From Candidatus Hermodarchaeota archaeon (GTDB lineage: Archaea > Asgardarchaeota > Hermodarchaeia > Hermodarchaeales > Hermodarchaeaceae): a DNA stretch of 38,221 nt. A program made the translations under genes and the position numbers. The stretch is taken from positions 1 to 38,221 of the forward strand of contig JAEOUH010000053.1 in assembly GCA_016839365.1 (NCBI GenBank). Direction: 5' to 3'. Below are positions 9,811 to 10,762 of this stretch, piece after piece. The notes beneath the pieces were generated by a model. That model did no database searches, was not told where the DNA came from, and saw only the letters and a list, made by a program, of their open reading frames with translations. Positions within the stretch are counted from its first letter, which is position 1, and each line of letters opens with the position of its first letter.

Positions 9811-10404
9811 CTATTCGATTAGGTCGAGTTTATTGAGGCGATACAAGAGGACTTCCACATCATCTTGGGTCATCCGCAGGTTTTCAGCGATTTCCTTTGG
9901 GGTTTTGTTGCCGCAACACTGTTTGGCGACATTATATTCGATTTCGCTGATTTGCCCTAATTTGACCATAAGTTTGGGAAGGCCTCGTTTTAGTTTGGGT
10001 TGGGGTGCATCCTTTTCGCCGATAAACCCGTTATTAAGCATTTGATTCAGTTCAGGAGTGAAGGAGAAGAAGACGAGTTTTCCATCCCATGCTTTGAGAG
10101 TTTCTTCATAAAGGTCTGAAAACCGTTCAATGACTTGGTCAAGGGCCTGAAGGACTTGGAGTCGGTTGTCTTCTTTGTCAACAACGGCAGCTATAACGAT
10201 GTAATCGCCAGCAGCATAGGTAATGTAGAATTCACCCATCTCGACGACGCGTGCTTCACCTTTCCCTTTTGAAATCATCCGGGCAAACTCACGGATTGCA
10301 GAAAAAAAGCCGGCCACTAGCGTCGAGTCAAGTTCTAATTCTCCAAATTTTTGGTCAAGGAGACAGACCCCGCTGGGATGCATCAGATAAACTACGTGTA
10401 GCAT
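9811..10404 (-). CDS. Longin-like domain protein with C-terminal winged HTH
   Basis: Starts at ATG 10404: MLHVVYLMHPSGVCLL...LDSTLVAGFFSAIREFA...F..ELNQML fits the longin/adaptin-sigma pattern. C-terminal KTPKEIAENLRMTQDDVEVLLYRLNKLDLI is an HTH. The track's extension to 10728 reads through the tRNA. Confidence 0.8.
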   Translation of the reverse strand: MLHVVYLMHPSGVCLLDQKFGELELDSTLVAGFFSAIREFARMISKGKGEARVVEMGEFYITYAAGDYIVIAAVVDKEDNRLQVLQALDQVIERFSDLYEETLKAWDGKLVFFSFTPELNQMLNNGFIGEKDAPQPKLKRGLPKLMVKLGQISEIEYNVAKQCCGNKTPKEIAENLRMTQDDVEVLLYRLNKLDLIE

Positions 10405-10459
10405 GCGTAAGGCCCCGTGGGAGAGGAAATCCGTAGTAGAAGCTAGGGTATTCGCAGTC

Positions 10460-10464
10460 AAAAA
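10460..10464 (-). terminator. Possible oligo-T terminator after the tRNA
   Basis: TTTTT on the - strand, 16 nt after the CCA. Confidence 0.35.
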
Positions 10465-10497
10465 GGTAACGATGGGAAATTGGTGCGGGGGGAGGGA

Positions 10498-10524
10498 TTT
10501 TCGGAGCTCGCAGTGCGCTGTTCC
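10498..10524 (-). other. tRNA intron 4, position 59/60 (27 nt)
   Basis: Outer GAGGG/CCCUC, central UUCG/CGAA, bulges AA|G and AA|U, inner GA/UC. Confidence 0.9.
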
Positions 10525-10555
10525 TTCGAACCCTCGAACCGCTGCCGGACAGGAT

Positions 10556-10576
10556 GTCTCATTTACCTGGTTAGAT
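10556..10576 (-). other. tRNA intron 3, canonical position 37/38 (21 nt)
   Basis: Central CUCA/UGAG, bulges AG|A and AC|A; the outer helix is the anticodon stem. Confidence 0.92.
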
Positions 10577-10583
10577 CTTGAGT

Positions 10584-10613
10584 AACGCCGTCTACCTGCC
10601 CTTGCAGGCGACT
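10584..10613 (-). other. tRNA intron 2, position 30/31 (30 nt)
   Basis: Relaxed BHB: central CGCA/GGCG (one A-G mismatch), bulges GG|A and UU|A, inner hairpin GUCGCCUGC/GCAGGUAGAC. A 31/32 register gives the same product. Confidence 0.82.
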
Positions 10614-10638
10614 CCTGCGCCGTTAACCAGGCTTGGCT

Positions 10639-10661
10639 GTGGGGTCTCCACCAGAAGAGAT
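10639..10661 (-). other. tRNA intron 1, position 8/9 (23 nt)
   Basis: Strict hBHBh': outer UGGC/GCCA, central GGGG/CCCC, bulges GU|A and AC|A, inner UCUCU/GGAGA. Confidence 0.9.
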
Positions 10662-10745
10662 ACCCCCGCCACCTGTAAGGCGGCAAAGACCCCTTTCGGA
10701 AGGGTCCCCCGCACGAGAGTTGTGGCAAAGGATTATTTCTGAATG

Positions 10746-10762
10746 TTTTAAACGTTTGTTTT
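10746..10762 (-). promoter_or_regulatory. BRE/TATA promoter of the tRNA
   Basis: AAAACAAACG-TTTAAAA on the - strand; implies a start site near 10725 and a leader of about 55 nt. Confidence 0.6.

Follow-up and report, generated by a model that had tools for sequence, protein, structure and literature searches.

Archaeal tRNA introns are generally held to survive solely at sites that allow a BHB. Transcribed flanks that pair transiently with mature sequence and are later discarded are familiar from other settings: in ordinary pre-tRNAs pairing between the 5′ leader and the 3′ end extends the acceptor stem, and rRNA leaders guide folding in cis. We know of no link between leader pairing in ordinary pre-tRNAs and splicing.

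Flanking sequences that build BHBs have been reviewed for split and permuted tRNAs only (PMC4090602, PMC4033280). In the split tRNAs of Nanoarchaeum equitans non-tRNA flanks pair to build a BHB helix that the exons alone cannot form; the halves are separate transcripts united in trans, with EndA removing the flanks. In the permuted tRNAs of Thermofilum pendens (PMC3218864) the promoter lies at a long distance from the mature 5′ end and the sequence between the two is derived from the tRNA: it is the real 3′ half, which is brought into place via a circular intermediate.

Here we describe a tRNA-Leu(CAA) gene from an Asgard archaeon. Like other genes with BHB introns from Thermoproteales and Asgard archaea it has a strict hBHBh′ intron, here at position 8/9, together with multiple introns and EndA genes in the same genome; it has four introns, however, and reviews place the maximum per tRNA gene at three (PMC4090602, PMC4033280). 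The accounts of non-canonical and multiple BHB introns (PMC4090602, PMC4033280, bioRxiv 10.64898/2026.10.13.758758) describe introns alone, and the last of them, on Asgard tRNA introns, does not mention leaders; the present gene has an accessory leader in addition. As in N. equitans, flanking sequence appears to help build a BHB helix, but all parts are in cis, no BHB cut delimits the leader, and a copy of the acceptor strand is present in it as well. As in T. pendens, tRNA-derived sequence separates a distant promoter from the mature 5′ end, but here it comprises a seven-nucleotide spare copy together with hairpins, and the tRNA can be built without permutation. In comparison with ordinary pre-tRNA leaders, the leader would replace one strand of the acceptor stem rather than extend the stem. 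We regard it as a new accessory to a known system, BHB splicing – a view built wholly on sequence comparison and energy models. A search of the open literature returned no published account of a spare acceptor strand in a tRNA leader.

A tRNA-Leu(CAA) gene with four introns

The gene lies on the minus strand of the window (the whole stretch of DNA that was analysed, 38,221 nt) at 10481-10669, where sequence inspection reveals four introns and an encoded CCA. Computational removal of the corresponding segments of 23, 30, 21 and 27 nt leaves an 88-nt tRNA-Leu(CAA). Neither ARAGORN nor Rfam at the gathering threshold detects a tRNA in the window, and a genome-wide search with RF00005 also misses the gene. 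The relevant features, in window coordinates, are:

10746-10752 (−): TATA box TTTAAAA, with the upstream copy following after 40 nt and the real G1 after 83 nt
10714-10706 (−): upstream spare copy of the 5′ acceptor strand, GUGCGGGGG (GCGGGGG at 10712-10706, with GU in front)
10706-10700 with 10694-10688 (−): leader hairpin 1, 7 bp with a 5-nt loop
10685-10688 (−): pyrimidine linker CUUU, for which G-U pairing with the G run of either copy is possible
10684-10678 with 10674-10668 (−): leader hairpin 2, 7 bp, its 3′ strand ending on G1-C2
10662-10669 (−): first exon, 8 nt, the real 5′ acceptor strand G1-G7 (GCGGGGG at 10669-10663) plus U8
10639-10661 (−): 8/9 intron, 23 nt, strict hBHBh′ (BHB scan: H 4/4, h 4, h′ 5)
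10481-10638 (−): remainder of tRNA-Leu(CAA), with further introns at 10584-10613, 10556-10576 and 10498-10524
10491-10483 (−): 3′ acceptor strand C66-C72 (10491-10485) plus A73 and C74, CCCCCGCAC, partner of both copies

The copy is offset from G1 (10669) by 43 nt, with 36 nt between the two copies. The initial annotation had drawn attention to GUGCGGGGG at this distance upstream of G1, to its potential to form 9 bp with the 3′ end CCCCCGCAC (10714-10706 with 10491-10483), and to two hairpins in the leader, the second of which overlaps G1-C2: all are present. Its use of G-U pairs to assign the leader to the minus strand was also sound, both hairpins having such pairs, which become A-C mismatches on the plus strand. 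Pairing with the linker can lengthen hairpin 1 so that it reaches the G run of the copy. Hairpin 2 abuts the BHB central helix of the 8/9 intron, in which the intron sequence CCCC (10644-10641) pairs with G3-G6 of the acceptor strand. Because the BHB uses G3-G6 in this way it cannot coexist with the acceptor stem, with whose seven G-C pairs it competes.

Two observations concern the surroundings of the gene. A mechanical ORF of 305 aa, beginning at a TTG (9811-10728, −), spans the entire tRNA gene, such that automatic annotation could swallow the tRNA; the true downstream gene must start well after 10481. Right after the CCA, at ∼10452-10475 (−), is a stretch with a run of five T that is conserved in both genera, and which probably represents the terminator, the beginning of the next gene, or both.

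Promoter spacing

In ordinary tRNAs of the same genome the distance from TATA box to tRNA is 32-47 nt. From TATA box to upstream copy the distance is the same throughout the orthologues of both paralogues with the 8/9 intron, Leu(CAA) and Leu(UAA), and in a Leu(CAA) gene that has no 8/9 intron (from genome G001) the real G1 sits where the orthologues have the upstream copy. Together these facts suggest that the promoter has kept its ancestral geometry and that the whole 43-nt unit should be transcribed; with initiation ∼25 nt downstream of the TATA box, transcription would begin at about 10718-10725. A start site downstream of 10706 had been named in the initial annotation as fatal to its proposal; promoter spacing would instead put the copy inside the transcript. 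It was by the same spacing anomaly that Chan et al. found permuted tRNAs (PMC3218864).

The retention of ancestral spacing to the upstream copy, and the location of G1 in the intron-less G001 gene at exactly this position, would also fit a different scenario: that the mature tRNA takes its 5′ strand from the upstream copy, and that the 43-nt unit, with its two hairpins, is a fifth intervening sequence. We consider this very unlikely.

Search for a motif that would excise the 43-nt unit

We scanned all cut pairs for BHBs, defined by a 4-bp central helix composed of the nucleotides upstream of both cuts and by flanking 3-nt bulges. The true 8/9 and 59/60 introns pass strictly. For excision of the 43-nt unit no cut pair in the eight registers (0-7) passes even relaxed criteria, and no accepted BHB class (hBHBh′, hBH or HBh′) applies; the initial annotation had dismissed a fifth intron of 43 nt, and the systematic scan agrees. 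The lack of a motif is to be expected because both would-be central-helix tetranucleotides are the same G-rich repeat. Further difficulties are that U8 is found after the downstream copy only, the upstream copy being followed by A or C, and that RNase P is present, making an ordinary route available.

A BHB-like motif does occur inside the leader (10678-10712, −), with a central helix of 4/4 that includes three G-U pairs and cuts after 10704 and 10684. An intron at this place (14-20 nt excised) was rejected: it yields a different product, and the motif is not conserved, being absent from L011, L013, genus g2 and all Leu(UAA) genes. Confined to the closest relatives, it is possibly the remnant of a duplicated intron. 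Removal of the 43-nt unit by a BHB-independent pathway, with the upstream copy as the mature 5′ strand, strikes us as highly improbable; if true, it would constitute a new kind of tRNA intervening sequence.

Several other explanations of the repeat were ruled out. Excision of 66 nt as one intron, with the upstream copy as 5′ strand, would leave A8 or C8 in place of U8. Target-site duplication does not fit two copies that lie on the same side of the intron, nor does attachment-site duplication by an integrated element fit a distance of 36 nt between the copies, with no coding capacity and with spacers of 33-36 nt. Finally, the gene is neither split nor permuted: a single promoter is followed by all exons in linear order on the same strand, and together they give a complete 88-nt tRNA.

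Conservation of the copy and the hairpins

Taken in its own genome alone the leader repeat lacks significance: this genome has 55 instances of a GC-rich 7-mer that recurs at a distance of 20-90 nt and is accompanied by a downstream reverse complement, which sets the chance level. It is conservation that makes the repeat significant. Orthologues were sought in one genome per species by means of a pattern that described the gene with its 8/9 intron but not the upstream copy, and relatives were added. Gathered via the 8/9 intron alone, the set comprises 27 distinct genes for tRNA-Leu(CAA) and tRNA-Leu(UAA) from Hermodarchaeota-type Asgard MAGs.

An exact copy (7/7) is found 40-43 nt upstream of the real strand in 26 of the 27 genes, which answers in the affirmative the question of conservation raised in the initial annotation. 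In the remaining gene, tRNA-Leu(UAA) of the genome under study (C19:56905-57056), the match is 6/7: the upstream copy is one G shorter. Shuffled upstream windows contain an exact copy in 0.7% of trials, and the 15 nt 5′ of the copy are conserved to just 36-76%. The extra pairs U-1:A73 and G-2:C74 are not conserved: GU precedes the copy in 9/17 CAA orthologues, and U-1 could pair with A73 in 13/17. These genes are related to one another, and the independent events number few: one origin common to the two paralogues, one joint loss, and two cases in genome G024 (the last two are described below).

The leader design is shared by both paralogues, including the Leu(UAA) gene of the genome under study, although their intron content differs: four in Leu(CAA), the 8/9 intron only in Leu(UAA). 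The spacer between the copies is 33-36 nt long and varies by single nucleotides. Hairpin 1 is common to both paralogues and is followed by a pyrimidine tract in all Leu(CAA) orthologues, while the second half of the spacer differs. The Leu(UAA) gene just mentioned is located outside the window; an EndA-family gene (C19:55223-55483) lies ∼1.4 kb upstream of it, within a tRNA gene cluster.

Hairpin 1 has undergone compensatory changes among the orthologues (for example from A-U to G-C in four sequences), and the helix of the 8/9 intron shows compensatory changes on both sides. MAFFT misaligns hairpin 1 in divergent orthologues, with the consequence that the formal covariation count understates it. 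Changes in hairpin 2 are solely one-sided and preserve pairing (G-U, A-U, G-C). The acceptor stem is invariant across orthologues, which places pairing between the copy and the 3′ strand beyond the reach of a covariation test.

Each element of the real unit – acceptor strand, intron hairpin, pyrimidine run and GCC...GGC hairpin – has its counterpart in the leader, which suggests that the leader began as a tandem duplicate of the 5′ part of the gene. It is conceivable that this duplicate is now a decayed and functionless relic: beyond the piecewise match, close relatives keep the BHB-like leader motif (H 4/4, G-U pairs included), and the linker resembles, in a form weakened by G-U pairs, the strand with which the G run pairs. 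We nonetheless think neutrality quite unlikely. Exact copies in 26 of 27 genes amid variable flanks, and pairing in hairpin 1 that is maintained through compensatory changes, speak against it, as do the loss of copy and intron together on a short branch and the same design built from different sequences in G024. A present function is, moreover, compatible with an origin by duplication.

Association with the 8/9 intron

Eight genes of the same class – seven for tRNA-Leu(CAG) and the Leu(CAA) gene of G001 – share the acceptor strand and the start of the D-arm and have no 8/9 intron; none has a copy within 90 nt. A ninth gene, L020 from another family, likewise has neither intron nor copy. The G001 gene is nearly identical to, and closest in sequence to, that of G005, which retains both elements, and because of this near-identity the copy and the 8/9 intron appear to have been lost together on the short branch leading to G001.

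For unrelated lineages five genomes from other families, complete or nearly so, were searched with a tRNA model, and the seven hits with model positions 8-10 as their 5′ limit were examined. Two carry an 8/9 intron, both in G024 (family f7). The first (L059, G024:C2:40499-40823) has a strict 8/9 BHB and, 5 nt upstream of its acceptor strand GCCCCGG, which differs from that of the gene under study, an exact copy of that strand. The second (L062, G024:C1:1073996-1074310) has a leader octamer complementary to positions 68-75 of the 3′ end, not to the whole strand. The other five hits have an intact 5′ end and are without 8/9 intron and copy. A second survey of five genomes gave no further 5′-truncated candidates among the matches listed, 33 weak ones lying outside the listing; the sample of unrelated lineages is thus small.

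Scans for exact repeats in the genome under study, directed at other tRNAs with a leader copy, returned chance matches only, with the exception of Leu(UAA). A case on contig C15 was rejected, its copy lying upstream of the TATA box, and C85:24947-25059 was discarded as a counter-example, its 5′ end being intact.

As far as gene comparison goes, then, the spare copy is shown to be strictly associated with an 8/9 intron that uses the acceptor strand, and to be absent from the compared genes without such an intron.

The Leu(CAG) genes of relatives (L048-L054) have peculiarities of their own: large introns are present in the D-loop region, and in most of these genes a conserved inverted repeat, GGGCAAAGG ... 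TTTTGCCC, brackets a TATA-like element ∼50 nt upstream.

Predicted folding of the precursors

Partition-function folding was performed for all 25 full precursors at 37 °C, with a model that leaves tertiary contacts, Mg and proteins out of account. A register shifted by one nucleotide is preferred in this energy model, and BHB occupancy is given as a register-free measure. With the native leader the 3′ strand is predicted, for every orthologue, to pair with the upstream copy (0.96) and not with the real strand (0.00), and the predicted occupancy of the BHB helix is 0.66 in Leu(CAA) and 0.95 in Leu(UAA). With a leader of 9 nt, which has neither the copy nor the hairpins, the predicted values drop to 0.23 and 0.74, and it is the real strand that now pairs with the 3′ strand (0.71 in Leu(CAA)).

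The initial annotation had proposed that the copy holds the 3′ strand and so frees the real 5′ strand for the BHB, with deletion of the copy as a test of 8/9 splicing. Carried out in silico only, removal of the copy alone lowers predicted BHB occupancy from 0.66 to 0.55-0.58 in Leu(CAA) and from 0.95 to 0.84-0.87 in Leu(UAA). Because this drop is modest, while that seen with the 9-nt leader is larger, the larger contribution to the BHB comes, in this model, from the 3′ half of the spacer rather than from the copy. In Leu(CAA) the 3′ half is hairpin 2, which is predicted to stack on the central helix; in Leu(UAA) its predicted partner is the D-arm in the 3′ exon, and this pairing would bring the outer helix to about twelve pairs. 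The original proposal thus survives in part: the copy is conserved, predicted to be paired with the 3′ strand and linked to the intron, but most of the help to the BHB appears to come from a segment whose role in the outer helix had not been foreseen.

The model continues to favor the copy once splicing is complete. In this gene the spliced precursor has a predicted energy of −69.3 kcal/mol with the upstream copy on the 3′ strand as against −62.3 kcal/mol with the real strand; in seven of eight Leu(UAA) genes the copy is favored by 0.7 to 6.5 kcal/mol, and overall it is preferred in eight of the nine cases tested, by 0.7-7 kcal/mol. The preference arises from hairpin 2, which has to open before G1-C2 become available for the acceptor stem. 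Exchange of the copy for the real strand is consequently uphill in the model. This is not fatal to the idea of the copy as a placeholder, since the model ignores tertiary contacts, Mg and proteins, and since cleavage by RNase P is irreversible; it does, however, keep two rivals alive. One is the scenario discussed above in which the upstream copy is the true 5′ end, for the model has this copy on the 3′ strand both before and after splicing.

The second rival divides the leader into two functions: the outer-helix segment helps splicing, and the copy is conserved mainly to act as a lock or timer that sequesters the 3′ strand, A73 and CCA from RNase P, CCA surveillance or LeuRS before splicing. 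The slight effect of copy-only deletion on BHB occupancy would be in keeping with such a role, as would the modelled persistence of the copy on the 3′ strand after splicing, the potential of U-1 to pair with A73 in 13/17 CAA orthologues and of GU to pair with A73-C74 in 9/17, and the leader octamer of L062, which covers positions 68-75 rather than the whole strand. What a lock leaves unexplained is the restriction of the element to acceptor-proximal introns, many tRNAs with introns elsewhere having none; furthermore, in orthologues in which −1 is unpaired the copy helix is itself an RNase P-like substrate. We judge this alternative unlikely.

A model for the leader

The reading that we favor, and regard as reasonably probable given the comparative data and predicted folds, is that the 8/9 intron is the reason for the 43-nt unit, which would be transcribed as a structured 5′ leader with the copy as a placeholder. 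Judged by the folding model, the segment that contains hairpin 2 (or undergoes D-arm pairing) would be at least as important as the copy.

According to the placeholder model, the central helix of the 8/9 BHB would take G3-G6 of the real 5′ acceptor strand, leaving only G1 and C2 for the outer helix. The spare copy would pair with the 3′ acceptor strand and so keep it from invading the BHB, while the 3′ segment of the leader would build a stable outer helix ending on G1-C2: hairpin 2 in Leu(CAA), D-arm pairing in Leu(UAA). EndA would then cut and ligase would join U8 to A9, whereupon the real strand would replace the copy on the 3′ strand. The displaced copy could fold back on the pyrimidine tract of the leader (the linker) by means of G-U pairs. 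RNase P would act last, removing the whole leader at G1 (10669). We infer this order of events, together with the strand exchange and the RNase P cut, from the arrangement of the gene and its predicted folds.

The genome encodes a full-length RNase P RNA (RF00373, 175 bits, C80:3030-3407) and two EndA-family genes (C43:37410-37664 and C19:55223-55483), so that an ordinary route exists: splicing first, followed by a cut at G1. A manual check for EndA cleavage of the leader at G1 found no fitting motif.

Implications

A long promoter-to-tRNA distance combined with a repeated acceptor strand would offer an annotation rule for tRNA genes missed by ARAGORN and Rfam. The leader should be of interest to specialists in tRNA processing: if our reading is true, a folding-helper element is added to the tRNA maturation pathway. 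Intron positions adjacent to the acceptor stem should be nearly forbidden, given that the BHB there has to contend with the tRNA's most stable helix. A leader that, in cis, parks the 3′ strand and supplies the outer helix would, if true, explain how such positions came to be colonized in Asgard archaea.
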